From an uncultured Gemmataceae bacterium (GTDB taxonomy: Bacteria > Planctomycetota > Planctomycetia > Gemmatales > Gemmataceae), in NCBI GenBank assembly GCA_963750165.1, contig CAVVPN010000011.1, forward strand, positions 2,016,001-2,080,000: DNA of 64,000 nt. Direction: 5' to 3'. The notes under the pieces were generated by a model that searched no databases, had not been told where the DNA came from, and worked only from the letters and a program-made list of their open reading frames with translations. Made by a program: the position numbers and the translations under genes. Below, piece by piece: positions 46,073 to 64,000 of this stretch; the stretch's first letter is position 1; each line of letters starts with the position of its first letter.

Positions 46073-46351
46073 TGGCGGGCACAGCCTGACCAGCAGGGGC
46101 CTGCGCTGTCGCAGCAAGGGAGCCAAGGGAGCCAATGTTTTCACACGTCGAGATGCGGCGCCCTGGCCCTGTACGGCTGGCACGGCGCGACAACCACCGG
46201 CGGCGGTTGCCACAGCAAGGGGGCCAAGGGGGCCAAGGGGGCCAGCTTTTTCATACGTCGAGATTCGCGCCTGGCAGCGGTGCGCGCCGCTGCCAGGACG
46301 GCTCGGGAGCGCCGGCCTGCCGTTCGTGGTTCACGCAACTGCGAACCGCGC
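46073..46351 (+). repeat. Dispersed ~280-bp repeat, copy B
   Basis: Inverted homolog of 17157-17405. Confidence 0.9.
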
Positions 46352-47112
46352 TAGATAACAGGCTTCAGAGACCTGCCGCGATTCCGGCGCACAAGGCCGG
46401 TCACGATCAGCAAAGCGCCCCCGATGCTCGCCAGGACCAGCGCGGACGGGGTCGGGACCACGGGACCGCCGCCACCGGGGCCCGGAAACGCCTGCTGGCT
46501 GTTAGTGAACGCCACGGAAGATTGCTCGGTCGTGGGAAATTCGTTTGGCATTCCGTCGAAGAGAAAGGTGAAATGCCCTCCCGGATCAGCCGCAGAGGTG
46601 TATCCGTCCACCGGGTTGTTGTCGGCACCCGTAATATCGATGTTGTACGAACTCGAGGTCGTAATCGGAAGGTAGGACAGGTCGTAGGTCAGCGTGCCCA
46701 CGTCATAAGATCCTGCGGCAAGACCAAATTGGAACGGGTAGTTTTTTCCGGTAACCGGGTTCACATTCGGCGTGTCAGAAACCTGAAACAACGAGCCAAA
46801 TTGCTGCGTTGTCCAACCTCCCTGACTGGATGACTGCAAGACGGTCGAGTTCAGGTTAAAGCTCCATGCGCCATAGTCACCGTTCGGCGACAGCACGAGA
46901 CTACTGGCGCTCACGTCGATTCCGAAAGTCGATGCCTGGAAGCCCGTATCGGCCGGGGTGGTGCTGAACGTGAGATACACCTCGAAGCTGACCGTGTTCC
47001 CCGAGACGGCTGCCGTCCCGAGGGAGAAGGTGGCAAGACCGGCCGCGCAAGGCTGAACCCCACACAGCACGCCTATGACGGCAGCGCACCAAAGCAAGAT
47101 GGAGGAACGCAT
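46351..47112 (-). CDS. PEP-CTERM-like surface protein
   Basis: Signal peptide; C-terminal VPTPSALVL, TM helix, RRNR. Confidence 0.82.
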   Translation of the reverse strand: MRSSILLWCAAVIGVLCGVQPCAAGLATFSLGTAAVSGNTVSFEVYLTFSTTPADTGFQASTFGIDVSASSLVLSPNGDYGAWSFNLNSTVLQSSSQGGWTTQQFGSLFQVSDTPNVNPVTGKNYPFQFGLAAGSYDVGTLTYDLSYLPITTSSSYNIDITGADNNPVDGYTSAADPGGHFTFLFDGMPNEFPTTEQSSVAFTNSQQAFPGPGGGGPVVPTPSALVLASIGGALLIVTGLVRRNRGRSLKPVI

Positions 47113-47519: not shown

Positions 47520-48164
47520 TTATGAAAACCACACCTGGCCGAACAGGTTTTTTCCTACGGAAGCCCGTCGTACTTCCTCGATCCCCGCAGCAGAAGAGTC
47601 CTTCCTGAGTGCGTTCACGTCTCGATCTTGTTGCTGCAGCTCCTGTTCGATGAGTTCACGCACTGCCGCAATCTCGGAGGGGTCAGGGCCGCTCTCCTCC
47701 TTGAGATCGTTCAGGAGGACGCCGTGTTCATCCAGCAATAGTTCAAGAAGGTCGAAGTTCCTGCCCGAGAGGAGATGTGCATAGCCAACGGCCCGCTTTT
47801 CAACTGCGCCAAGCAGATCCACGATTGCGGTTGCGATGGTATGAGCGACTGCGGACGATGGACCTCCAGTATCTTCTACTTCCGGCTCTCCCGCTGCCGA
47901 CGAAATGAGTAGCTGCCGGAAAGGCGTTAGCGACTCGGTAACAGACAGAGACGTGTCATTTAGCACGTGCTGCCAGGCGGCATCCAAATCGAGACGAAGT
48001 TTACCCTGCCAATCGACCATCCACGGCACACTCCGCACGGCTCGTTGAAAAACGGGCCATTGTCGTTCGGTGCAGGCCAAGGCAAAGGCAAAGGCGGCAT
48101 TGGCACCCATCCCAGCCAGCGCACGTTCAACATCTTTCAGGTGTTGAACAATTCTCTTGAACAT
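47520..48164 (-). CDS. Putative immunity protein; N-terminus resembles DUF416/YjaG
   Basis: ATG 3 nt after the toxin stop; AFALACTERQWPVF and IEQELQQQDRD patterns; helical and acidic. Confidence 0.72.
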   Translation of the reverse strand: MFKRIVQHLKDVERALAGMGANAAFAFALACTERQWPVFQRAVRSVPWMVDWQGKLRLDLDAAWQHVLNDTSLSVTESLTPFRQLLISSAAGEPEVEDTGGPSSAVAHTIATAIVDLLGAVEKRAVGYAHLLSGRNFDLLELLLDEHGVLLNDLKEESGPDPSEIAAVRELIEQELQQQDRDVNALRKDSSAAGIEEVRRASVGKNLFGQVWFS

Positions 48165-48167
48165 GTC

Positions 48168-48595
48168 TCAGCCTCCTCCGATGGGCCTGGTAATTTGCCC
48201 GTGGACAGATTCTGTTCCCGTGATGTTGATGACTCCTGCTGCGTTCTGCCGAGCCTCGCATGCGGTGCAGGCGTAGTGGGTACACGCCTGCCGTGCCCCT
48301 TGTGCTTCACTTCCCAGGTATTGAATAGCACGAGCTTCGGCGTGGTTTCCCGCCAATCCAGCGGCATTGCCTCCTGTCGTCCCCCTGACGAACTCCACAC
48401 CCTCGCCGAAAATCTCGGTAGCCCTGGCACGGGCCAGAACGCCAGGAACTTGTCGGGCCTGGCTCACGACCACTCGACCCGTTGGAGTGACCGTGACGGC
48501 GATCGGAACACCGGTTACTCCGTTCGCCCCGAAAGCGGCGTTGTGGATGCTGTCGGTGGCGGCCTGGAGTTCTGCATTGGTCCACTGGAAGGGTG
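48168..48595 (-). other. Zn-dependent deaminase-like toxin domain (~140 aa)
   Basis: HAE at 48336-48344 and CTAC at 48258-48269, 25 residues from His to the first Cys. Confidence 0.78.
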
Positions 48596-51500
48596 TTCGT
48601 ACTGCTGGAGCAGCATTCCCCGCGGCAGCTCCCCCCTCGGCAGTCTGCAGCGCCCCCCGTTCGGCGGCGCCCGGCAGTTGCGCCCCTTCCCCGGCCGCCC
48701 GTTCGGCGGCGCCCGGCAGTTGCGCCCTTCTTGCGCCGCCGCCTGCTCGACAGCGGCTGGCACTTGCGCCCCTTCCTGCGCCGCCGCCCGCTCGACGGCG
48801 CCTGGCAGCTGCGCCCCTTCCTGCGCCACCGCCTGCTCACCGGCCCCGACCACTTGCGCCCCTTCCTGCGCCACCGCCCGCTCACCGGCCCCGACCACTT
48901 GCGTCCCTTCCTGCGCCACCGCCCGCTCCACCGCCGGCAGTTCGCTGCTCACCGCCGCCGCCACCGTCGGCCGGGCCACCGCGCTCGCTTCCGAGGTGAC
49001 GGCGGCCGTTTCACTGCTCACGGTCGCCACCTCCGCCGTGGCCGTGGCGGCCCTGGCGGAGGCTCGCGCGGACGCGATCCCGATGCCGGTCAGGCCGACC
49101 AGGTCGATCCCAACGTCCACTACCGTAGCGGCCGTGTCGCTGCCAGTCGCGGCTCTGGTGATATCGTAGGTCAGCGTATGCGTCTGCTCACCGGAGATCA
49201 ACTGGCGGAGGCCCGCCTGCGCGTCGTCGATGCCCTTGAGGGCAACCGCCCCGCCGAAGAAGATGCCCACGCCGGTTTCCGCCGTGACCGCGGCGAAGGT
49301 CACTCCGGCGAAGGTCTGCATCACCCCCCCGACGAATTGCATGGCGCCGAAGACACGCGTAAAGAAGGTGCCGAACGGGTTCCCCCCCTGGGGTTGATTC
49401 TGGAAGTTGTTAAAGTTGATCCCGCTGTGGACGACGAGACGGTAGGACTCGCCGGAGTCGGTGGAGTCGTTGTGAACCAGCACCGCCGCGCCGCTCTCCG
49501 GCAGCACGACGAAGTAAGTGTGGTGCGCCTCGACGTGCAGGTTGTAGACCGGCTCCACGTCGCCGTTGGCGAACAGGTCCGTCAGCACGGCCCAGCTGGC
49601 GTCCGGCGTCCTCAGTTCGTCGCCGATGCGCAGGTCGGCCGCCATGACCCAGCCGCGGCCGCGGACATAGAACGGGTGGCGGTAGGTTGCCCGCACCACG
49701 TCGGCGCCGACGTGCAGCGTCAGGAGCTGGGCCGGCGCGTTGTGGAACGCCCGCGCCACCCGACACGGCTCCGGCGCCGCCAGCGGGTCACCGTCCGGCG
49801 CCGCCAGCACCAGGTCGCCCGCCTGCACCTCCTCGATCCGCTTCGCGCCGCCGTCCGCCATCAGCACCAGTGTTCCGGCGGCGAAGCAGTACTGGTAGAC
49901 GAGTTGGTCGCCCATCCCCGCGAAGGCGTCCAGCGACGCCGCGCCAGCGAGAGACCACCCACTGCCCAGATCGCCCAGGCTCGCCGCCACCGAGTCGCGC
50001 GTCAGGGCGTTGGAAAGCGATCCGGACCCGGGTTGAGATTGCGCGGCGATCTGCGTGACCGTCGCCGACCACGGCGCCGCCACGCCGCCCCCCGTCGGGA
50101 TGGTTGGCCCGCTGCCCCAAACCAGGGGCGCGCCGACCGGCGCGAAGTCGAGGCTGCCCGTCGTGCCCGTCCCCTGGTTGCTCGTCTCGACGTAGTGCTC
50201 CAGCAGATCGTAGCGCGAGTTGCCCGAGGCGGTTTGGGTCAGGGCGCCGTCGAGGTAGTTGCCGCCTTGCGCCAGACTGAGCGAGGTGCTCCCCGTGGTT
50301 GCGACCGTGTTCCCGCCGCGCGTCTCGGAGCGGTTGTAGTTGCCGTTCACCGAAGTGGTCCGGGTGAAACCGCCCGTCTGGGTGTTGCTCGACTCCACGA
50401 CGGTCGATCCGTCGGTCCCGGTCACCGTCACCGAGTAGGCGCCGCCCGAGTCGGTCCCGGTCTGGGCGAGCGAATACACGTCGCTGCCGTTGGTGGTCGT
50501 TTGGTAGCTGCCGCTGATGGTGTCTTGCGACTCGGTGGACGTGTAGGTGTTCGTGCCGCTGCCCACCAGGTGGTAGGGGTTCAATCCCGCAGTCAGGTCC
50601 TGCGTGAACGAGTAAGTGTCCGTGCCGGTGGTGTTGACGCTGTTGGTGCCCGTGACGGTGTTGCCCGTGCTCGTCGCGTGGCTGACGTCGGTCGAGGTGC
50701 CCGCATAGGTGAACGGCCCAGACCCGCCGGTCCCGCTCTGGGTCACGGCGGTCGTCGTCGTCGTGTCCATCGTGTTCGACCCCGACCCCGTCACGCTGTT
50801 GCCGCTGACGCTCGACGAAGAATCGACCGTGGTGACGACGTGAACGGTGAACGAGGTCGTGAGGTCATTGCTCGCCGACGATTGGTCGTCGGTCACCGTC
50901 GAAGTGCCGGACGACGTACCGGTGTACGCGCCGGTCAGGTTGTTCCCGGAGTTCGATTGACTCTCCGAGTCGCTCGTCGTCTCCGTCAGAGTGAAGTTGC
51001 CCGTCGGGACGCCGGTGACGGCGCGCGTCGTCGTGCCGTCGTCGGTCGTCTGCACGGCGCTGGTGAAGTCCCCGGTGACGTTGTTGCCCGAGCCGGTGGA
51101 GGTGTCCGTGGTCGTCGTGGTCGAGTTCAGGGTGTAGGGGTTGCCGCGGTTGCCGGTCTCGCTGTCCGTGGTCGTCGTGCTGTCGCTCCCGGTGCTGGTG
51201 TAAGCGCCGGTGACCGTGTTCTCCGTTTGCTGCTGCGTCGAGTTGCTGGTGGTGGTGTCGGTGCTCGTGTCGCTGCCGTCGCTGTAGGTGGTGCTCTGCG
51301 TCACCACGTCGCTGTCGTTCGTCGTCTGCGAACTGGTCATCGCCCCGGTCAGGGTGTTGCCGGACGACTGCGAGTTCGTCGTCGCGGTGTCGGTCTCGGT
51401 GCTCGTGTAACTGCGAGTATCGATCGTCCCCGTTTGCGTGTGGGTCGTGGTCTGGGTCTGGGTGGCCGTCTGGCTGTCGGCGCCGGTGATGCTATTGCCC

Positions 51501-54500
51501 GACTCGGTCCCCGACGAGGTGGTGGTGACGGTGTTGGTGTCGGTCAGGTTCTCGCCGGTGTTCGTCTCCTGCCACGACGAGCTGAGGGTGTCGGTGCCGG
51601 ACGATGTGGTCGAGAACGCGCCCGTGACGCTGTTGCCCGACTCAGACGACTGGGAGTGCGACGTTTCCGTGTGATTGTCGCTGGAGGTTTGCGTCTGGTT
51701 CGTGGTCGTGCCGCTGACGGTCGCCGTCGTGTCCGATGTGGTCGTATCCGTGAGGGCGCCGCTGACAGAGTTGCCGCTCTGCTGGTCCGTCGAGGTCGTC
51801 GTCGCCGTCTGCGAATCGGTCTCCGTGGAGGTCTGGTTCGTGGTGGTCTGGTCCGTCGTCATCGACCCCGTCGTGGTCTGCGTCGTGCTGAAGTCGCGCG
51901 TGCGGTCGCTGCCACTTCCCTGGCTGGTTGTGGTCGCCGTCTGGGTCTGCGTCGTCACTACCGTCAGCGGACCGTTGGTCATGGTCTCGTTCAGAGACTC
52001 ATTGATCGTCGAGGTGTCGGTCGTCTGGTAGGCGCCTGTCTGGCTGTTGCCCGAAAGGGTGTCGCTCGACGTCGTGGTCGTTGTCCCCGTCAGCGTGCGC
52101 GACATCGTCTGGTTCGTCTCGTCCTCGGTGAACGAGGAGGTCGAGGTGCCCGTGTCCGACGAGCTGTGGACGCCGGTGATCGAATTTGCCGTCCCCATGG
52201 AGGTGCTGCTGCTCGTGTCGGTCCCGTCCGACGTCACCGTGTCCGTTTGGTTGGTGTCGGTCTGGTGACGGTGGGTCGTCCCGGTGTTGGAGTCCTGGGT
52301 CGTCGAATCGCCGGTGACGGAGTTGCCCGTGACGGTGCTGCTGTCGTGGGTGCTGTCGGTCGTCGTGATGACCGAGGTCAGGGGATTGTTGGTGTCCGTC
52401 TCGGAGTTGGTGTCCGTGCTGTCGGTCGCGCTGGTCGTGGTGTACGCGCCGGTGATCGAGTTGCCCGACGACGAGGTGGTGCCGCCGTCGCTCGACGAGG
52501 TGGTGATGGCCACGCTCAGCGTTTGGTCGCTGTCGGACTCGGTCCCGCTGGAGGAGTCCGCGAAGGTGTCCGATGACGAGAACGCGCCGGTGATGGCGTT
52601 GTCGGTGCTCTGGGTCATGTCGGTTTGAGTCCCGGACGAGCTGGCCGTCACAGTTATCGTCAGGTTCGTCTCGGTGCGCTGCGAGGTCGTGGCGGTCGTC
52701 GAGGTGGCGGCCGTCGTCGTCGTGCCGAGCAGATCGTTGCCCGAGCCGGACGACGAACCCGTGGTCGAGGAGGTGTCGTGCAGCGTCGCCGTCTGCGTCA
52801 GGTAGGTGAAGGTCTGGTCCTGCGTGGAGTTGGCATTGTTCGTCCCGCTGATGGTGAAACTGCCGGCGATGCGGTTGCCGGAACGGTTCGACGTGTCGCC
52901 AGTGGTCGAGGTGAGCGTGATCGTGCTGACCGGGCCGATCGCGTTGACCTCAGTGGTCGCCTGCGAAGTCGAGTCGGTCGCCGTGACCTGGTAGTCGCCG
53001 GTGACGCTGTTGCCCGTCTCGGTCGAGGACGTGTTCGACGACTCGGTGCCGGTGGTGGTGATGATGTTGACCTGGTTGGTGTCGGTCTGCGACAGGTTGT
53101 CGGAGCTGCTGCTCGTCACCGTGGTCGAGTAGGCGCCGCTGTTGGTGTTGCCCGACGAGTCGGTTTGCGACGTGCTCTGGCCGCCGGTGCGGTGCGCCGT
53201 GCTGGTCAGCGTCTGGTTGGTGAGCGTATCGTCGGTGCTGAAGGTGGACGTGGTCGTGGACGACGAGGTGAAGTCGCCGGTGACGTTGTTGCTGGTGCCG
53301 GTGGTCGTGGTCGTGCTGCTGGTGGTGCCGGCGTCCGTCCTGGTCTCCGTCTGGTTGGTTTGCGTGGCGGACGAGGTCGTGGTAGCGGTCTCGGTGCTCG
53401 CGGTGGTGCTGGCGCCGGTGACGCTGTCGCCCGAGTCGGTGGACCCGGCCGTGTAGTCGGTCGTGGCCTGTGATGTCAGGCTGCGGGTCTGGTCGGTGTC
53501 GGTCTCGTTGGTCTGGGAGTGCCCGCCGGTGGTGGTCGCGGTGGACGTCCAGGCGCCGGTGAGCGAATTCGAGGTGGCCTGGGTCGTGGTGCTGCCGGAG
53601 TCGGTCTGCGTGACGAGCGTGTCGAGCCCCTGGTTGGTCGAGTGGTCGGTGCTGGTCGAGGATGTCGCGGCAGTGACCGTGCGGTCGTCGTCGCCGGTAA
53701 CCGAGTTGCCGGTGGCGGTGCCGCTCGAAGTGGACCCGGACGAGGAGGTGATCGTGTCCGTCAGGGGGCCGTCGGTGGTCGTCCGCGTCAGGCTCTCGGC
53801 GGTCGTGCCCCCCAGCGTGTTGTTGTAGTCGCCGGTGACATCGTTGCCGGTGCTCGTCGTGTTGCTGGTCGTGGTGGTGGTGTCGGCGTAGACGGCGGTG
53901 AGCGCACCGTTGGTGTCGGTGCCGCTGACGGTCGTGGTCTGCGTCGTCGCGCTGGTGGTCGTGAAGTCGCCAGTCACCGAGTTGCCCTGCCGGCTGCCGC
54001 TGGTGCCCGTGGTCACCGTCTTTGCATCCTGAGTCTGGAGCGTCTGATCGGCAACCGTTTCCGCGCGCACGTCGGTCGAACTGCCCTGCGTCTGCTCGTT
54101 CGTGTCGCCGGTAATCGTGTTGTCGTTGAACGTGGTCGTCGTGGACGACGTGAGCTGGCTGATGGTCGCCGAGACATGCAGGTCGCTGATGTCGTGCGTC
54201 TGTGTGCCGCTGCCCGTCGTGGCCGTTGAGGAAGTGCCGGACGAGTCGCCCGTCAACGAGTTCCCGGCGGCATGGTTGTGAGTAGTCGTCGTCGAGTGCT
54301 CGGTGAGCACGCCGGTCGCGCCGGAGTTGGTCGTGGTGTCGGTGCTTGCGACGGTCGTCGTGGCGGAATCGTCATTGACAAAGTCGCCGGTGACCTGGTT
54401 GCCGCTGCCGCTGCTGGTGTCGGTGGTCGTCGCCGTTGTCGTCTGCGTGTCGGTGAGCGTCTGGTTGGTCGTGGTCACCGTGCTGCTGGTCTGGGTGTTC

Positions 54501-57500
54501 GACGTGCCGTCGCTGGTGAAGTTGCCCGCGATCTGGTTGCCCGAACTGCTGCTGTTGGAGTTGCTGGTGCTCGTGCCGGTCGTGGTGACCGTCTGCCCCT
54601 GGTTGTGCTGGGTATCGGTGCTCGTGGTGGTGCCGTTGGTCTGGTCGGTGTTGCTGAAGTCGCCGGTGACGCTGTTGCCCGACGCGGTGGTTGTGTCGGT
54701 GCTGGTCGTGCTGGCGGTCGAGGTGTCGGTGAGTGTCTGATTCACCGTCGTCTGGTTGCGGCTGACGGTGCTCGTCACCGTCCCGCCATTCTGGTAGTCG
54801 CCGGTGACGGAGTTGGACGTGCCGCTGCTGTTGCCGTCGGTGTGGCTGGTGATGGTGACCGTCTCGGTCAGGCCGTGGTTGGTGTCGGTCTCGTCGCGCG
54901 TCGAGTCCGACGTGGACTGGCTCTGCTGCTGCGTGTCGCCCGTGATCGAGTCGCCCTGGCTGGTCGTCGTGGACGTGCCACTATCGGTGACAGTGGCTGT
55001 GCTGGTCTGTGTCTGGTTGGTCGTGTCCACGGTCTTGGTGTCGCTGCTGGTGGTGTTCTGGGTCGCGTTGAACGAGCCGTCGATGGAGTTCCCGGTATTC
55101 GTGGCCGTGGTGGTGACGGTCGCGTCGGTCGTCGTCGTGGAGGTCAGCGTCTGGTCGGCGACTCCCTCCACGTCGTCGGTCGTCGTCGTGGATGTCTGCG
55201 TGGTGTCGAAAGCGCCGCTGTAGGTGTTGGAAGTGCTGTCCGTGTGACTGACGATATGGGACGTGACGTTGCTGTCGGTCGTCTGGGGGTCGTTGGAGCC
55301 GGAGCCTGTCTGCGTCGCGTCGCTCGTCGAGTCTTCCGTGCTGGTGAAGTCGCCGGTGACCGAGTTGCCGTTAGACTGGTCCTGCTTGGTGCCGGTCACG
55401 TCGAGGTGGCTGGTGAACGTCGAAGTCTGGTTGGTGTCGGTCTCGTCCTGCGTCGTCGTCGAATCGACCTGCGACGAGGTGGCGCTGGCGCCGCTGAACT
55501 GATTGCCGGACTGCATCCCGTCGGAGGTCGTCGCCGTGGCCTGGGTGTTCACCACGGTCGTCAGGGTGTTGTTCGTGGTGGTGTCGTCGCGCGTCGTCGT
55601 CGTCTGAGAGTTGAAGGTGCCGCTGAAATCACCGGTGACCGAGCTGCCGTCGTTCTCCGCGTGACGTGTGTTGTCCATCGTGACATCGACGTTCTCGGTA
55701 ACAGACTGGTTGGTGGTCGTCGCGGTCTGGTCGGAGTCCTGGGTGCTGTCGTCCGTGGTCGAGAACTCCCCGGTGACACTGTTGCCGGAGTCGGTCAAGG
55801 TGTCGTCGGTCGTCGTGGACACGTGGTTCTGGGTGCTCACGGTCAGGTTGGTGGTCGAGTCGTCCCGCGTCGTCTCGGTGTCGCTCGTCTGCGTGGCCGT
55901 GAAGTCCCCGGTGATCGAGTTGCCGCTGTTGGTCACGTCCTGGCTGGTCGTGGTGGTGATGGTGGCGGTCCCGGACTGGGTCTGGTTGCTCGATGTCTCG
56001 TCGCGCGTCGAGCCGGCGTCGGCGTGCTGGGTGGTGGTGAAAGCGCCCGTGATGGCGTTGCCCGTGGTGGTGGTCGTCGTGACGTTGTCGCCGGTGCTCT
56101 GCGTGGTCCCCGTCACGGTGAGCGGGCCGTTGGTGGTGGTGTCGGTGCCGTCGGACTGTGAGGTGTCTGTCGCGTCGGTGCTGAAGTCCCCGCTGATCGA
56201 GTTGCCGGTGGTGGTCGTATCGGTGTGGCCGGTGGTCGTCATCGAGCTGACGACTTCCTGAGTCTGGTTGGTCGCGTCTTGGTCGGTGGTGGTGGTGTAG
56301 TCGTTGGTCTCCGTGCGGGAGTAGCTGCCGTCGATGGTGTTGCCGTCGGCGTCAGCGGTCTTGTCGGCGGTGGTCTCGACAGTCGTGTCGGCCGAGGTTC
56401 CCTGGTTGGTGATGTCGTGCTCGGTGGTGGTGTCGTCGGACTCCGTTTGCGACTGGGAGAACTGGCCGCTCAGCGTGCTGCCGCCGCCGGTCCACTGGAT
56501 CTGGGTGGTGCCGCTGCCGGTCATGGTGTCGGTCTGCTGGCCGTTGGTCGTCGTGCCCTGCGACGACGAGGTGTTGGTGGTGATGCCGTCGTAACTGTAG
56601 TTGCCTCCGAGGGTGTTGCCGCTCTTCTCCCAGTCATCAACCTCGGTCGCGTCGGTGGTCGAGTTGGAGGTCTGCGTCTGGTTGGTGCCCGTCACCACGG
56701 TGTGCGTGGTGGTGGTCGTCAGCTGGATGATGTCGAACGTACCGTCCTTCTTGTTGCCGGTGTTTTGCACGTTGCCGGTCGTGCTGGCGTCGCCGACCTG
56801 CTCGGTGTGGCTGCCCTGGTTGTCCTGGGTCGCGTCGTCGTGGGAGGTCGAGTTGAGGCTCTCCTGGTAGTCGTAATTGCCGGCGTAGAGGTCGCCGCTC
56901 TGGGTGAGATCCTTGTCCGCGGACGATGTCACGGTGTCGGAGGTCGTCACCGTCTTGTTGGTCCCGTCGGTCTCGGTCGTTGCGTCGGTGTGCGAGGTGC
57001 CGTTCAGGGAGTAGCTGCCGCCCTGGGCGTTGCCGGTGTTGGTCTGGTCGTAGGTGGTGTGGATGGAGCTGGTCTGGGTGACATCGGACGACTGGTCGGT
57101 CTCGTGCCGCGTCTGTTCCACGTCGGTCGTCGCGTCGGTCATCAGGGTGAACTGACCGGTGAGGTCATTGCCCGTCTTGTCGGCATCGGTGGTGACGGTG
57201 GTGCTGCCCGTGACGTTCGCCGACATCGGCTGGTTGACCTCGTCCCGGTTCACGATGTCCGAGGTCGTCGTCGTGGTCATGCTCAGGGTGTAGGCGCCGG
57301 TGATGAGGTTGATGGTCGCCGCCGTGGTCTCCTGGTCGAGCGTCGTGTTCAGCTCCTGATCGTAGCTGAAGGTGCCGTTGGAGCCGGACTCGCTGACATC
57401 GGTCTGCTGGTTCAGCTGGCGGGTGCGCTGCACGATGCCGGTGGTGTAGTCGCCCGTCTCCTCGATGTTGTCGGTGCTGTCGCTCGTGCCACTGGACGTG

Positions 57501-60500
57501 TAGTCGCCGATCAGCGCCTGGTTGGTCAGCTGGGCGGCCAGCTGGCCGGAGTCGGCGCGGATGAGGCCGTCGATTTCCCCCTCCAGGCTGGCATCGACGG
57601 TGCGGTAGCCCGTGCGCGTGTATTCGGCGTCCTCCGTGGTCATGGAGTTCCAGGTGAACTGGCCGTCGGTGTAACTCTTGGTCTCCTGGAAGGTGGACAG
57701 GCCGGTGGTGTCGCCCGTGTAGGTGTCGGCGATGTCATCGGACTTGATCGGGCCGTCGTTCAGCTGCTGGCCATCGAGGTTGGCGGCGTACTGATGCACG
57801 ACGAAGCCGCTCGCCGAGTAGCCGGTCGCGTCGAACTGGCCGGTGGCGTAAACGTTGTCGAAGTTCAGGATGCCTTTCTGCGCCTTCACCATCTGGGACG
57901 GGGCGCCCTGAACGTCGCCGTTGACCGTGTCGAGGCCGAACCCGTATTCGTACTGGACCTGGCCGTCAACGGTAGCCGTGGCCGTAAAGTTGCCGGTCGT
58001 GCGGTCCATCGACACGAATTCCTTCAGCCCGACCGAGCCCTGAACATAGCTGTTCACGTAGACCATGCTAGGGTCGTCCAGGCGGTTGATGTCCTCTTCG
58101 CTGCTGACGTTGATGACATCGGCAACCGAGACGACGACGGTGGCCACGTTGTTCCTGGTGTCCTGGATCTGGATGGTGATGTCGTACGGACCTTCGTGCG
58201 CGTAGGTGTGGTCGCCAACGACCTCGTAGAAGCCCGCCGCGAGCTGCGACGCCTGCACCATGCCGGTGCTGGTGTTGCCGTCACCCCAGTTGATGGTGGC
58301 GACGAAGTCGCTGGGGCTCGTGATCGCGCCGGTGGGGATGAACTCGGCCAGGGCGGCCCCGTTGGCGCGCCCCAGGCTCTTGTTGTCACTGACGGAGCGG
58401 CCTTCGAGCGTCACCACCACCTCGCCCCACGCGGGCGGCGGCGGCGTCGCCCGGATGATGGCCTGGCCGGAATCGGTCTGGGCCCAGAACGCCACCTGGC
58501 CGGCGGTGTTGACGGGGTCGTAGGTGCTGATGGCCTGCACCGTCCCCAGCCCGGGCAGCATCTCGCCAATGTTCGCCACGCGGTAGTCGCCGTAGAAGTC
58601 GCTCGACGGTAGGATGCCCGGGGCAGACGAGTCGAAGACGAAACTGGCCTCGTGCAGGCCGTCGCGCACGTTGCCGGCGGAGTCCTGCGCCTGGGCCATG
58701 TACACCACGTTGTAATACTTGTGCCCCGCCAGATCGGCCGCGTAGTTGATCCCCAGGCTGGCGTTGTCATCGATGTGGTCGATGGTGCCGACGCCCACGC
58801 CGTTGACGAGAACCTCGTTGGGGTCGAGGTAGCCGTCGCCCGTTTCGCCGACGACCTTTTCGACCGTGCCCGTCATCGGGTCCATCACGTAGATGCCGTG
58901 GCCCTGCAAGTTGCCGACGAAGGCAATCAGGCTGCCGTCGTCACTGATGGCGGCGTTGGGGCCGACGGCGCCGGGGATGGGCTGGGGGGCGCCGCCGGGG
59001 GTGAAGTATTCGGCGACGCCGTTGACGTTCGCCACGCCATAGCCGTTGTCGGCGAGATGGATCGCCTGGATGTTGCTCACCTGGTTGAGCACCGGCGCGC
59101 CCGGATTGCTAATCGGGTTGGGCGGCAGAATGCCGAGGGTGTTCGACAGGGTGAGCGAGGTCAGAGCGACGTTGCCGAGCTTGCCGTTGACGAGATACTG
59201 GTTGCCGTCGTGCAGGCTGCTGCCCCAGCCCGAGATGGCGAACTGGTCTTTGTTGTTGAGCGAGACCGGCGGCATGATGACCGAGAAGTCGTTCTTGAAC
59301 GAGAAGAGGGCGGTCCCGGCAACCACGCTGAGGTACGCGGCCGGGTTGTTGCGGTAGGGCTGGGCGACCAGCGCCCAGGTCGGATCGACCGGCGAGAAGT
59401 AGACGCTGGCCCACACCGGGTTGAGGATCCAGGCGCGCGGCGGCAGTGTGTACGACGCCGTGATGGCGAAGCCGATGGCACCCGGTCCGATGGCCCCGAG
59501 GACGGCCGAGATGTACATGTCAATGAACAGCGGGTTGCCCCAGGTGATGCCCGCCGCCGACAGCCCCATGTCGCCGACCGCCGCCTGCAGGGGGAGGATG
59601 TACTGGCCCTTGAGCGCGTCGGCTCCGTCCCAGGCCTCCGCGTAGGTGAGTATGGCCGGGGCGTAGGTGAGCAGCGGCAGGCCCAACGGCAGCGAACCGA
59701 TGGCCGTCTGCACGCTCATCTGCCGCTCGGCGAACAACAGGTCGTCATCGTTCAGCGACACGTTCTGGGAGAAGGCCGCCGACGGCACGCCGCCCGTGTC
59801 CGGCGGCAACAGGCCGCCGTTAAGCATTCCCGGGGCGACGAGCGATACGGCGCCGGTGGCCTTGGACCAGACATAGATGCTGTCCACATTGTTGGTCTGC
59901 GTCCCCTGGAAGCCGACGTGCCCGTTGTTGTTGATCGACGGCCCCATGCCGAGACTGTTGAAGCCGTTGCTCTGTTTGGCCACGATGTCATAGTTGAAGG
60001 CCGACGCGCCGGAGCGCACGATCAGCGAGACGACGGGGTCGCCGCCGGTGTCGTTCGGGCCGTGGATTTCGTAGTCGAAGGTATCGACGACATCGATGCC
60101 CTCCCGGGCGAACGTCTGCAGGGCCACCGAGTTGGTGGGGTCGTAGGTCCAGCTGCCGTCCCGGTTGACGTGGTAGACGGCGCCATAGTGGGAGAGGCCG
60201 TCGCCAGAGGTCCACAGCCCCGCCGTCTCGCCGAGGTCGGGCGAGGTGGCGCCGACCAGGAGGCCGTTGGCGGCCGGGACCGACAGCACCTGCGCCGCCG
60301 TCGCCCAGTAACCGCGATCAATGCTGGTGTCGCCGGGCACGGGCGGGTCGTCGGCGCCGATCACGGTGATGTGGACCGTGGCCGTCGCCCGCTCGCCGTA
60401 GGCGTCCACCACCGTGTAAGTGAACGTGTCGGTGTAGGTCTGCCCGAGCGGCAGCCAGGACAGGACGGTGCGCGGGTCATACGTGAAGCTGCCGTCGGGC

Positions 60501-63500
60501 GCGAAGGTGACGGCGGCGCCGGCGGCGCTGGTAGCCGCGGACACGGACGTGTCCACGACCAGGTTGGCGCCGTTGGTCACGTCCACGTCGTTGCTGAGCA
60601 CGCCGGTGGCGGCATTGACGACGAGCAGCACTTCCTTGCTGACGGTGTAGTTGTCGTCGTTGGCGGTGGGCGGGTCGGCCACGCCCGTCACTGTCAGCTG
60701 GGCCGTGCCCGATGTCCGGATGCCCTGCGAATCAACGATCTGGTAAGTGAAGGAATCGGCCAACGACTGGCCCGGCGCCAGAGCGCGGACCTGCGGCACG
60801 GCCGAGTCGTTGTACTGGAAGGTGCCGTCGGCATTGAGCGTCACCGTGGCGCCGAGGCTGCTGGTTACGCTGGCGGCCACTGCCTGGAGCGGCGCGTCGC
60901 CGGGCAGGGCGTCGGGGTCGGTGGCGCCAACCAGCACACTCTGACCGCCGGTGCCGTCCTTGGTGATGCTGATGGTGGCGGTTGTCGGCACGGGCGGCCG
61001 GTTGACCGGGCTCTGCACCACGACCTCGACGAAGCCGGTCGCTGTGGCCCCGTAGGGGTCGGTCACCGTGTAGGCGAACTGGTCGGTCACGCGCTGGCCG
61101 GCGGCCAATGCGTTGAGCGCGGCAACCTGCGTCGGGTCGTACAGGATGTGCCCGTTGACCAGGCTCACTGCCGCCCCGTCGGCACTGGTCGCCGCCACCG
61201 AGGTCAGGGTCAGGATGTCGTTCACGTTCGGGTCGTGAGCAGCGGAGAGCGGCACCGACTGGTCAATCGTGGTCGTTGCGCTGGCCCGCAGGTAGAGTTC
61301 GGGCGTGGACGAACTGGGCACGACGGTGCCGGCCGTCGGCGGCAAGTTGGCGCCCTGGACGACGATGTCGGCGGTCGCGGCGCCCTGGTGGCCCTGAGCG
61401 TCGGCGACCGTGTAGCTGAAGTGATCGACGACCTGTTCGCCCTGGCCGACCCCCTGGAAGCGGTTGCCTGCCGTGTAGGTGTAGCTGCCGTCGGTGTTGA
61501 CCTGGACCGTGGCGCCCCAGGCGCTCAGCGTGTCGGCAGCGACGATGTGTAGACCGCTGCCCACGCCGGCAGCCAGCAAGCCCGCGGCAGCGCTGACGGA
61601 CAGCGAGCCGCTCTGGCTGACGGTGAAGTAACTGTCTGCCGCCGGCCCGTGCAGCGCCGCCGGCCCCTGGACCACCAGACTTTGTGTTGCCGTTTCGCTG
61701 GTGCTGGAGTTGGCCGCCTGGACCGACGCGACAGCGGCGCCGGGCGCCGCCGCCGTGCTGAAGCCGAAGGTGAGTTGCTGCCCGGTGGTCAGCGCCGCGG
61801 CCGGGTCAGCCGCCTGCCAGGTCACACCGCCCGACGAGATCGAGACCGACCAACCCGTGGGGGTGACGAGGGAGTCGAAGGCCGTGCCGGCCGGGGCAGG
61901 CACGGTCAGGCTGTTAATGTCCCAGGCGGCGCCGGACGGGCCGCTGACGGTGAAGGTGTAAGCGTATTCGCCTGCCGTCGCCGGGCCGACCGAAGACGTG
62001 ACGGCCCCTTGCGCCTCAGGTCGAGCGTGAAGACGATATCGGTGACGGCGGAAGTCAGGCCGTGGCTGTCCCGGGCGACAAGGTGCAGGTGGTGCGTCCC
62101 TGCCGACAGCGGCGCGCCGTTGATCTCCGCCAATTGCTCGGCACTGAACGTGAAGCTGCCGCCTTGCAAGTCGGGCAGGACGTTGACCGCCGGCGCCGCG
62201 GCGTCGAAGCCGGCGAGGAAGGATGTCAGCGCGCCCTCGCTGGCCACGGTGCCGCTGACCGCGGGCACGCGCACGGTGGCGCCGCCGACCGACTGGCCGG
62301 TGATGACGGGGGCCATCAACGGCCCGCTGGTGATGGTCAGGCTGTACTGGCTGGTGTTGCCGGCGCTGTCGGTCGCCTGCACCACGAGCGTGTTGGGGCC
62401 GGCGGCCAGCGGCACCTGACTGAAGGTGAAGTTGCCGTTGGCGTTGGCGGTGGTCGTCAGCGACGTGCCCACAATCTGGAGCGTCATCCCGGGGTCGGTC
62501 TGGCCGTCAAGGATGGCCTGCGTGGCCGTGGTGTAGTCGGCGCCCTGGACGGGGTCTTGCAGCGACGCATCGAGGTGGAACACCGGCGTCGCCGGCAGCG
62601 TCGTCTTGACGGTCAGCGTCAGCGCCGGCGTCGGGCTGCTGAAGTTGCTGGCCGCGTCTTCGATGATCGCCGTGATCTGATGAACGCCGTCGGACAGCGG
62701 CGTCGAGACGATCTGGGCAACGCCGGTGGAGATGGCCTGCCCGATCATGGTGCTGCCGTCATAGAAGGTCGCCAGGTCGCCGCGTGCCGCGAAGACGCGC
62801 AGGCTCGGGCTGCTGTAGCGCGTGATGTGCGCGAGCGGGTTGACGCCCGTATTGCTGACGGTGAGCAGGTCGGGGGCCGCGGTGGCGGCCGGCGGCGTTT
62901 CGATCAGGGTGAAGCTCAGTTGCACCGGCGCGGCGACGTTGCCGTCCACGTCGGTCGCTTGCAGCGACAGCTGGTAGGAGCCATCGCTGAGCGGGCCGCC
63001 GAACACCTGGGCCAGCAGGGTCGGCGTCAGGATCAGCTGGTCGCCGTTCATGTCCGACGACACATCCACAAAGGACATGCTGTTGATCGATAGCTGCACC
63101 GAGGCCAGCGGGCTGATGTCGTCGATGACGGCGCGCACCGTCGGGTCGGAGGTCGTCGGCGTGCTGCCCGGGACGCGGCTGGTGTCGTTGACCAACCCCA
63201 GGGTGATGGTGGGCGGCGTGACGTTGTGCATCGTCACGTTGATGGTCGAGGTCGCGGTGTTGCCGGCCGCGTCGGTGTCACGCACGACCAGGGTGTTGGC
63301 GCCGCGGTTGACCGGGACGTTGGTGAGCGTGAAGGCGCCGCTGTTGGCGTTCGCGGTCGTCTGGGCCAGGGTGCCGTCCACGGTCACGGTCGATCCCGGC
63401 TTGGCGGTGCCGTTCAGCGTGATCGCCGGGACGGTGACGTTGTTGCCCGAGCCGTACTCGGCGTGCTGGAGCGTCTGGTCGAGCGAGACGCGCGGGGCGG

Positions 63501-64000
63501 TGATGCTGCGAACAACCGTGACATCCACTGGCGCCGTGAAGAAGCCGACGTTGCCCGCTGCGTCCAGCGCCACGGCGGTGTAGACGTAGGTGCCCTCGGC
63601 GGGCGTCAGGGTGAAGGTGATATTGCCACCGCCCGCGGCGCTGGCGACGGGGAGGCCGTTGGCATAAAGGACAACGGTGGTGCCGGCCTCCGCCTCGGAT
63701 GTCTGGAAGACCAGCGTGCTCGCACGGGTGACGAAGCCGCTGCCGCCATTCGGTACGAGGATGCCGGCGGGCGTTGTCAGTGGCGCGGGGGCGGCAGGCG
63801 GTGTGGTGTCGAGCGTGAACGAGACCGTGCTCACCGGCGAGACGTTGCCGAACTCGTCGGTCGCCACCACGCGCACCGAGACGGGGCCGTCGGGGATAGG
63901 GCCGCCCAGGATCGACACGAGGACCGAGGGGGTCAGCGTGAACGCTCCTTCGACGAGCGACGACAGGCTGCCGACGAACGGCGCGCCGTTGACGCTCACC
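48168..64000 (-). CDS. Giant polymorphic toxin (partial, >5,200 aa): Ig-like, cadherin/VCBS-like, PKD-like, 46-aa Thr/Ser repeats, Hint, deaminase-like tip; frameshifts near 62018 and 48725
   Basis: ORFs 61906-63999, 48515-61903 and 48168-48473 join into one stop-free frame if one base is restored at each of two sites; 5' end lies outside the window. Confidence 0.85.
48655..48945 (-). repeat. 45-bp (15-aa) tandem repeat linker, about 6-7 degenerate units
   Basis: AVERAVAQEGTQVVG / AGERAVAQEGAQVVG / AVERAAAQEGAQVPA etc. Confidence 0.92.
49469..49888 (-). other. Pretoxin Hint (intein-like) domain, 140 aa
   Basis: CFAAGTLVLMADG, IEEVQAGDLV, ATYRHPFYV, VYNLHVEAHHTYFV...VLVHN. Confidence 0.95.
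50230..57480 (-). repeat. About 50 degenerate 138-bp (46-aa) Thr/Ser-rich repeats
   Basis: Consensus GNSxTG(D/A)(F/Y)...TNQT...; anchors at 54387, 54525, 54663 and 54801 are 138 bp apart. Confidence 0.92.

Follow-up and report, generated by a model that had tools for sequence, protein, structure and literature searches.

Background

Can a chain of broken reading frames in a planctomycete genome be a single gene, and if so, what would its product do? The question is raised by a window of 64,000 nucleotides (the whole stretch of DNA analysed here, C11:2016001-2080000, contig CAVVPN010000011.1) from an uncultured Gemmataceae bacterium. The assembly (GCA_963750165.1, genome label G000) comprises 9.62 Mb in 12 contigs. 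On the minus strand of the window an immunoglobulin (Ig)-like reading frame is followed by a 4,462-aa open reading frame (ORF), by a short deaminase-like tip in a different frame, and by a 214-aa gene. Here we describe the region as the last third of a single giant gene. A secreted or surface polymorphic toxin is the predicted product, and we regard the six frame changes of the gene as probable sequencing or assembly errors. We assign this reading as a whole a probability of about 0.72. A hidden toxin gene at this place had been proposed earlier from the letters and their translations (the sequence-only reading). The analysis below follows the gene to its 5' end and into related genomes.

A probable single gene in six reading segments

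All features of the toxin gene and of the immunity gene are on the minus strand, and the window holds the 3' third of the giant gene. Six stop-to-stop segments follow one another on this strand (2,471, 1,489, 2,470, 1,433, 3,672 and 4,663 aa), with overlaps of 287-694 nt. The start codon is an ATG (MKRPSYY...) at contig position 2110502, equivalent to window position 94502, so that the gene extends 30.5 kb beyond the window end. Read through from this ATG to the last codon of the tip, the segments give 46,332 nt, or 15,444 codons, with 0 in-frame stops. The GC content of third codon positions (GC3) tracks the proposed frames without a gap across 46 kb and switches abruptly at six points. Each of these junctions is a single-base change, with one base too many at J1-J3 and one too few at J4-J6. 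Four of the six lie beyond the window end, at window-equivalent positions of about 72530-72546, 76434, 83565-83573 and 87529-87534. Not all six are in long homopolymers.

Junction J2 falls within CARDB-like domain sequence. CARDB is a Pfam match in that segment, and the sequence at the junction has the pattern of this domain. Because a CARDB-type domain sequence is split by J2, the segments are not separate genes. The pattern on which the sequence-only reading relied thus goes beyond chance, both in the GC3 signal over 46 kb and in the position of J2. The 4,462-aa ORF (48515-61903, minus strand), which in translation carries the pretoxin Hint domain and the 45-nt linker repeat, was considered as an independent gene and rejected, since its first GTG is inside a domain and the coding frame continues upstream.

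The features of the window part and of the gene that follows it are listed in the direction of reading, with the basis of each.

61909..64000, minus strand: Ig-like stretch, part of the fifth reading segment (Pfam Big_13, E 6.1e-38; Big_6, E 5.5e-14)
62017..62020, minus strand: frame change J5, one base under whole codons (...DIVFTLD / EAQGAVTSS...)
57173..61903, minus strand: first ~1,577 aa of the 4,462-aa ORF, resembling beta-rich repeats (no Pfam match at E <= 0.01)
50264..57172, minus strand: Thr/Ser-rich stalk with about 50 copies of a 46-aa repeat, core G-N-S-V-T-G-D-F (motif scan)
49466..49867, minus strand: PT-HINT (pretoxin Hint) domain, ORF residues 4013-4146 (Pfam PF07591, E 6.9e-14, 52.7 bits against a cut-off of 27.7)
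48926..49465, minus strand: Gly-rich hydrophobic segment after the Hint domain, with two hydrophobic stretches (hydropathy)
48618..48925, minus strand: Ala/Glu/Gln/Gly-rich linker of 45-nt (15-aa) repeats, containing J6 (repeat units)
48171..48617, minus strand: 149-aa C-terminal tip with H92-A-E94 and C117-x-x-C120, stop at 48168-48170 (motif, profile, model)
47520..48164, minus strand: P0002, a 214-aa all-helical protein of predicted DUF416 fold and the predicted cognate immunity protein (homologs, adjacency, model)

At J5 the Ig-like frame ends at 62020 and the frame of the giant ORF resumes at 62017, with 2 nt between them. J6 is in the linker, whose 45-nt units start at 48910, 48865, 48820, 48775, 48730 and 48689 (minus strand). 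The sequence GAAGGGGCGCA is found in four units and GAAGGGACGCA in one, whereas the unit at 48730, GAAGGGCGCA, lacks one G relative to its neighbours. Past this unit the main frame runs through 70 residues of Arg/Pro-rich out-of-frame text to a stop at 48515-48517. A second frame, open from 48836 to 48171, carries the repeat on (AQLPGAAERAAGEGAQLPGAAER) into the tip and its stop. The sequence-only reading had noted the missing G near 48725, the stop-free continuation of the repeat into the tip text, a second base change near 62018 that joins the Ig-like ORF, and a 214-aa gene 3 nt past the tip stop; all of these were recovered. Its figures for the whole gene fell short. It had put the protein at more than 5,200 aa with two frame breaks, where the full gene would encode about 15,444 aa in 46.3 kb, with six.

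The upstream segments contain PPC, Big_5, CARDB, He_PIG, Big_9, Big_13 and Dockerin_1 domains, and the fifth (3,672 aa from stop to stop) reaches contig position 2088924. The part built of Ig-like domains spans about 11,000 residues and is followed by the Thr-rich stalk of about 2,300. In the stalk, 33 motif matches to the 46-aa repeat have a median spacing of 46 aa, and Thr and Ser make up 31% and 16% of 2,303 aa. The repeat has no Pfam match and recurs in a relative, genome G072. No RHS or haemagglutinin-repeat family is matched in the window part (Pfam E <= 0.01) or in the five upstream segments (E <= 1e-4), which agrees with the earlier description of the stalk as neither RHS nor filamentous haemagglutinin. 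An RHS- or CdiA-borne tip was excluded at this locus on the same grounds.

The Hint domain and the segment behind it

The PT-HINT domain is placed just upstream of the toxin module. Its translation has the N-terminal Cys (YQYC/FAAGT), the T-x-x-H motif (TYRH) and the C-terminal His-Asn (VLVHN/D). The first Cys, TxxH and terminal HN have established roles in Hint and intein chemistry. In the segment that follows, hydropathy windows exceed 1.4 at residues ~49-81 and ~117-138 past the Hint domain. DUF4225 matches this segment weakly (E 0.0016, under the cut-off). Atlas scores of 0.89 for DUF4225 and 0.87 for PT-TG serve as leads only, and the Pfam model of PT-TG (PF14449) gives no match at E <= 10. 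From these features the segment is possibly a membrane-active pre-toxin module.

A tip with a predicted deaminase fold

The translation of the tip includes GNHAEARAIQYL, THYACTACE and a final GGG*. A HMMER search of 1.84 billion cluster representatives found 81 relatives at E <= 0.001, and the match ends at most 25 residues from the C-terminus in 76 of them. Among the 50 carriers that were scanned with Pfam, 11 have RHS, four have PT-HINT, one has Fil_haemagg_2 (P0031, 3,119 aa), one has TSP3 and 33 have no match. In a 43-sequence alignment of the family, E94, C117 and C120 are invariant. The AlphaFold2 model of the tip is confident, with a predicted local distance difference test score (pLDDT) of 93.6 and a predicted template modelling score (pTM) of 0.89. 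In the model HAE and CxxC are at the N-termini of helices 93-105 and 118-127, a placement that matches zinc deaminases. Behind helix 3 the model has only short strands and a helix of 4 residues.

A profile of the tip family was searched against the sequences of the PDB and gave four matches (E 2e-4, 2.9e-4, 0.0029 and 0.17). All four are dCMP deaminases, and the HAE and CxxC of the tip align on their catalytic motifs. The tip searched as a single sequence gave 0 matches there at E <= 10. In Pfam, dCMP_cyt_deam_1 matches 16 of 43 family members at E <= 1, below its cut-off (best E 7.5e-5). MafB19-deam reaches E 0.019 in two of the 43, and no other Pfam toxin-deaminase family is matched. Apart from dCMP_cyt_deam_1, no family other than those of the carriers recurs in more than two members. 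Structural comparison with VIA-align places deaminase-fold enzymes in most of the top 40 rows, about 30 chains of this fold having Z 5-7.7. These include guanine, dCMP, tRNA and cytidine deaminases, as well as the toxins DddB (5.9), a Pseudomonas syringae type VI secretion (T6S) cytidine deaminase toxin (5.6) and DddA (5.1). Because motifs, profile matches and the predicted model agree, the tip is classified as a divergent member of the deaminase superfamily, as had been suggested earlier from the motifs.

Several results weigh against this assignment. No Pfam deaminase family passes its cut-off on the tip itself, where dCMP_cyt_deam_1 scores 15.5 bits against 25, and NCBIfam has no match for the tip, nor for the immunity protein. 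Nearly all of the top Foldseek rows are deaminases, but at E >= 0.02 and template modelling (TM) scores of 0.35-0.46. The VIA-align Z values stay below 8, a level that the tool's own note calls common, and EspK, which is not a deaminase, ranks second with Z 7.6. The zinc-binding H of H-A-E is mostly kept in the family and is D in several members.

These results bear on whether the tip is a deaminase-folded protein that does not attack nucleic acids. Its substrate might be a free nucleotide or a small molecule, or the tip might have no catalytic activity and be retained for binding only. The only significant sequence matches are indeed to enzymes of a nucleotide, dCMP, the known toxin deaminases rank lower by structure, and several homologs have lost the zinc-site H. 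However, members of the family form the C-terminal ends of RHS, Hint and haemagglutinin carriers and are followed by a co-varying gene, which is the signature of toxins, and E94, C117 and C120 do not vary. A toxin deaminase clade with the motifs 'H[occasionally D]xE, CxxC' is moreover described in the available portion of Zhang et al. 2012 (PMC3482391). We consider a tip of this other kind quite unlikely and retain the reading of the tip as a toxin domain.

Two tips of relatives depart from the pattern. At L033:1415-1930 and L034:1505-2020 RHS-type YD-repeat text runs into the tip at about residue 22, and the first tip helix is absent. Both carry GGDAE, with D for the zinc-binding H, and both retain the immunity gene. 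From their sequences these tips may be recombinant or inactive.

A predicted immunity protein of the DUF416 fold

The ATG of P0002 is at 48164. Twenty relatives of about 200-270 aa were found. A homolog of P0002 lies directly 3' of the tip and on the same strand in all seven other loci (L006 and L032-L037, six of them metagenomic), a count in which L032-L034 are near-identical to one another. Where tips are 51-60% identical, the neighbouring P0002 homologs are only 25-27% identical. This lower identity means a faster divergence, as would be expected for an immunity protein.

The model of P0002 is all-helical (pLDDT 86.1). DUF416 structures take Foldseek ranks 1 and 2, 2q9r with TM 0.62/0.68 and probability 1.00 and 3f7c with TM 0.53/0.56, and the third row has TM 0.20. 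The DUF416 Pfam model (PF04222) does not match P0002 even at E <= 10; it weakly matches nine of the 20 homologs at E <= 1 (best 9.7e-4). In the Atlas clusters nearest to P0002, DUF416 is present in 17-28% of members, and one cluster also has Imm6. Imm6 is linked to YwqJ deaminase toxins in the excerpted text of Iyer et al. 2011 (PMC3239186). On homology, position and fold, P0002 is likely to be the cognate immunity protein of the tip.

Origin of the cassette and polymorphism among relatives

The tip and the immunity gene differ in composition from the rest of the gene. The tip has a GC3 of 0.59 and the immunity gene one of 0.57, against 0.86 in the linker, 0.85 in the post-Hint segment, 0.95 in the Hint domain and 0.92 in the stalk. 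The tip was found in only one of 60 related genomes, and scans of contigs with the tip alone and with a 10-sequence alignment gave no confirmed relative. Because of the GC3 of 0.57-0.59, against 0.85-0.95 upstream, tip and immunity gene most likely represent a cassette of foreign origin, gained recently by recombination at the linker.

For the stalk end and Hint domain the nearest relative is in G072, inside a 4,302-aa open frame, with 52% identity over 327 residues. Homology stops exactly at the ...VLVHNDS of the Hint domain; the sequence beyond is unrelated and is followed by another PT-HINT cassette. A single invariant C-terminus, which the sequence-only reading had named as the finding that would speak against a toxin, is therefore not what the homologs share. 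The polymorphic toxin layout that it had recognised is borne out by a PT-HINT domain above its cut-off, a modular C-terminal tip and the relative of the downstream gene in the seven other loci.

Of 120 genomes of the family, 63 have PT-HINT-type matches, and this genome has 11 of them. Contig C6, outside the window, has an array of eight (C6:8398-30396, minus strand; L008-L011, L013-L015, L017). Six of the eight units share a segment before the Hint domain, and the tails after it differ. By this arrangement the array looks like classic orphan toxin cassettes downstream of another large gene. Also outside the window, an ORF of 3,751 aa (C11:709743-720995) stops within a few residues of the end of its PT-HINT domain and has no toxin tail. 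Either its tip has been lost or it is hidden by another frame change.

Assembly errors or a decaying gene

The frame changes have two competing explanations. They may be errors of the assembly, or they may be real and mark a decaying pseudogene of a once-functional giant toxin, whose immunity gene is perhaps kept against the toxins of relatives. Conserved genes of the same assembly bear on this point. The essential gene rpoC (C12:317287-321531) is matched in three open frames, that is, with two single-base frame changes. Inspected by eye, one break is inside ...KRVDYS / ... and the other inside ...HDILRI / GAETVQNYLVREVQSVYR, and the stretches around both are conserved in this essential enzyme. 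The 3' part of rpoC is duplicated about 4.7 kb away (C12:312568-313418). Taken together, the breaks and the duplication point to an assembly with indel and duplication errors. Among the other conserved genes, the C7 copy of carB, the C12 copy of secA, rpoB and dnaE are intact. Adjacent matches in differing frames occur in another secA and in one of the uvrA paralogs; inspection by eye covered rpoC only.

Counted over rpoB, rpoC, dnaE, carB, two secA and four uvrA copies, with a partial carB on C4 left out, the conserved genes show four frame changes over about 30.6 kb, a density of 1.3 per 10 kb. With six in 46.3 kb, the giant gene comes to the same value. The partial carB, which is broken and located at the very end of C4 (C4:1338827-1340884), duplicates the intact carB of the small contig C7 (C7:8088-11432), and is probably assembly redundancy at contig ends.

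Not all of the evidence points in this direction. The origin of the frame changes was judged indirectly, from conserved genes of the assembly. A genome-wide count of GC3 frame-switch candidates gave about 190 in 6.56 Mb (0.29 per 10 kb), compared with five in the 45.8-kb unit (1.1 per 10 kb). Either the giant gene is enriched about fourfold or most events elsewhere are missed. The GC3 count is rough and blind to events in short genes or near gene ends, and is used as a caveat only; a stricter version caught two of the four breaks known in the conserved genes.

This roughly fourfold excess of six changes in one unit speaks for a pseudogene. Real mutations could also account for three changes being +1 and three -1, and for some of them lying outside long homopolymers, and a giant non-essential gene can tolerate decay. 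However, 15,444 codons without a stop would be indels without any substitution decay, of which the GC3 of 0.92-0.95 in stalk and Hint domain likewise gives no sign. The essential rpoC is broken in the same way, and conserved genes have the same density of breaks, which makes a pseudogene less likely. The sequence-only reading had held that real frameshifts would make the locus a pseudogene. A pseudogene remains the main rival but is the less likely outcome, and we regard assembly error as the probable cause.

In a narrower alternative the break at 48725-48730 alone is genuine, and the tip and immunity gene would form a silent orphan cassette behind a stalk that has lost its own tip, kept as stock for recombination. 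Orphan Hint-tip cassettes are common, as the array of eight matches on C6 and a stalk-less Hint-tip-immunity unit in another genome (G023) illustrate, and the composition of this tip is foreign. The orphan units seen, however, begin with a Hint domain of their own, and this tip has none. Its frame carries on the linker repeat in register, whereas the main frame has no alternative toxin and ends in the 70 Arg/Pro-rich residues. The break itself involves one base of a short run of G, and indel errors have been demonstrated in this assembly. We give an orphan cassette only a small chance.

The same G run could be imagined as a programmed or phase-variable switch that turns display of the toxin on and off. 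The break is within a tandem repeat, and such repeats can slip. But the run has only 3-4 G, well under the length of the tracts known for phase variation. The five remaining breaks are in non-repetitive sequence and would need a separate explanation in any case, and rpoC shows that the assembly itself makes such errors. A switch therefore appears very improbable, and a base lost in assembly is the preferred account of J6.

Other giant reading units of 27-41 kb are found at C4 ~674,800-716,000, C3:3184620, C3:2539890 and C4:229980. Some of them have no frame-switch candidates and others have 1-2; one 34-kb unit is unbroken. At C11:553486-559326 two full-length UvrA matches are head to tail in one 2,327-aa open frame, which would represent a fusion of two UvrA copies or else a missed stop. 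With frame changes at about 1.3 per 10 kb, rpoC included, annotation of this assembly calls for caution, because a large gene will come out as a series of fragments or as a pseudogene.

Export and the proposed mechanism

The N-terminus of the gene has an Arg-rich stretch and an L-x-x-LEER-x-LL motif. In ORFs of at least 300 aa in this genome, 57 of 61 matches to L-x-x-L-E-[DE]-R-x-x-[PL] are within the first 200 residues. The motif is common to 57 long ORFs, including the giant gene (window-equivalent ~94400) and an 11,412-aa ORF on C3. From this distribution it may be a lineage-specific sorting or export signal.

A divergent catalase-peroxidase gene lies upstream of the giant gene, and an unannotated 253-aa ORF and a glycosyl hydrolase gene lie downstream. 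The 253-aa ORF (46351-47112, minus strand) comes shortly after the immunity gene. Its N-terminus resembles a signal peptide and its C-terminus is hydrophobic and basic. Pfam gives no match for the ORF, whose GC3 is too low for the coding filter. The five upstream segments of the gene have no Pfam secretion domain. Secretion genes flanking the locus were considered and rejected after the flanks had been inspected. The sequence-only reading had looked to the 5' end and the neighbours for a secretion route; the start codon was found, but the flanks contained no secretion genes.

The following mechanism is proposed. The giant protein would be exported and displayed as a long fibre. The Hint domain would cut at its C-terminal His-Asn and free about 440 residues, consisting of the hydrophobic module, the linker and the tip. 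The hydrophobic module could aid entry of this fragment into a neighbouring cell, a role for which the weak DUF4225 and PT-TG leads are the only indication. Inside the target cell the zinc-dependent tip would deaminate a base in a nucleic acid or a nucleotide, and the DUF416-fold protein would bind the tip and so shield the producer and its kin. Two considerations lower our confidence in this scheme: no secretion genes are beside the gene in the flanks examined, and we infer the export route, Hint cleavage, cell entry, toxicity, deamination and immunity binding alike.

Significance

The layout is of an already known kind, as the accessible text of Zhang et al. 2012 (PMC3482391) makes clear. 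What is new here is the size, the type of stalk, a tip family outside the curated libraries and an immunity partner of the DUF416 fold. A literature search pairing 'giant genes' with 'polymorphic toxin' gave none among the matches listed. The analysis assigns one planctomycete giant gene a concrete and testable function, interbacterial toxin delivery. It also brings to light a compact predicted toxin-immunity pair outside the curated libraries, in which a 149-aa domain of the deaminase fold is joined by a DUF416-fold protein of 214 aa. For proteins of the DUF416 fold this pairing suggests a plausible role.

A wider reading is offered tentatively. This may be the largest polymorphic toxin yet described (15,444 aa), and some planctomycete giant genes may be weapon stalks, that is, fibres of Ig domains and Thr-rich repeats with a lineage-specific N-terminal export signal and swappable Hint-released toxins. 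The tip might then found a deaminase toxin clade that neither Pfam nor NCBIfam includes and that has a DUF416-fold inhibitor of its own. New deaminase toxins have served as sources of base editors. If this wider reading is true, the tip clade could hold a new substrate preference useful for base editing.

Comparison with known systems

CdiA is exported by two-partner secretion (TPS) and forms a surface filament with a C-terminal toxin, a pre-toxin region linked to entry and an immunity gene directly downstream. The giant protein would share the long surface filament, the C-terminal toxin, the pre-toxin region and the adjacent downstream immunity gene. It differs in that it has no Fil_haemagg or TPS domain and that the flanks examined have no gene for a TpsB-type transporter. 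Release would here be by the Hint domain and not at a VENN-type boundary.

DddA-DddI of Burkholderia cenocepacia (6u08, 8e5d), DddB (9k3e) and the Pseudomonas syringae T6S cytidine deaminase toxin (9c63) are carrier-borne C-terminal toxins of the deaminase fold that act between bacteria and are blocked by a neighbouring immunity protein. Their structural similarity to the tip (Z 5.1-5.9) is weaker than that of housekeeping deaminases (to 7.7), and there is no match at the level of sequence. Toxins of the DddA type are delivered by the type VI secretion system, for which no context was seen at this locus.

A close pair is P0005/P0093 of Tuwongella immobilis (locus L006, genome G023), named by NCBI as a polymorphic toxin-type HINT domain-containing protein and a DUF416 family protein. 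Its tip is 77-78% identical to the one described here and its immunity protein (214 aa) 62%. Gene order is kept, the ATG being 2 nt after the stop. In contrast to the giant gene, the Tuwongella unit is a stalk-less cassette of 324-329 aa that starts at the Hint Cys, and neither a hydrophobic module nor a linker repeat separates its Hint and tip.

Descriptions of Hint-released deaminase toxins with immunity genes date from 2011-2012, and Planctomycetes are among the hosts of PT-HINT/deaminase polymorphic toxins (excerpts of Iyer et al. PMC3239186; Zhang et al. PMC3482391). A PT-HINT group of pre-toxin architectures has also been published. The gene described here and the toxins in those excerpts have in common a repeat stalk, a Hint domain, a variable deaminase-type tip, a downstream gene for a predicted or known immunity protein and possibly a trafficking N-terminus. 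Of the features by which Zhang et al. 2012 define polymorphic toxins, three are seen here: PT-HINT, a variable tip that is swapped among carriers, and a linked downstream gene. For an N-terminal domain that would specify a known secretion route, Pfam gave no match. The stalk differs, as it is made of Ig-like domains and a 46-aa Thr-rich repeat instead of RHS, FilH or ALF, and the protein reaches about 15,444 aa.

Within these toxins the sce3516-like deaminase clade has HAE with H occasionally D, CxxC, a hairpin after helix 3 and HINT, RHS or FilH carriers (PMC3482391, in excerpt). The motifs and carriers of the tip family fit this clade, compared by its published description only. The immunity type listed there for the clade is SUKH, whereas here the DUF416 fold is predicted.

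The excerpted text of Kohn et al. 2016 (PMC5177795) on planctomycete giant genes leaves their function open between structural roles and secondary metabolism, and the word 'toxin' is absent from it. The gene described here resembles those giant genes in exceeding 20 kb, in encoding an Ig-rich presumed surface protein and in belonging to a large genome. The largest gene given in that text is 36,239 bp, whereas this one spans 46,332 nt and ends in a toxin module.

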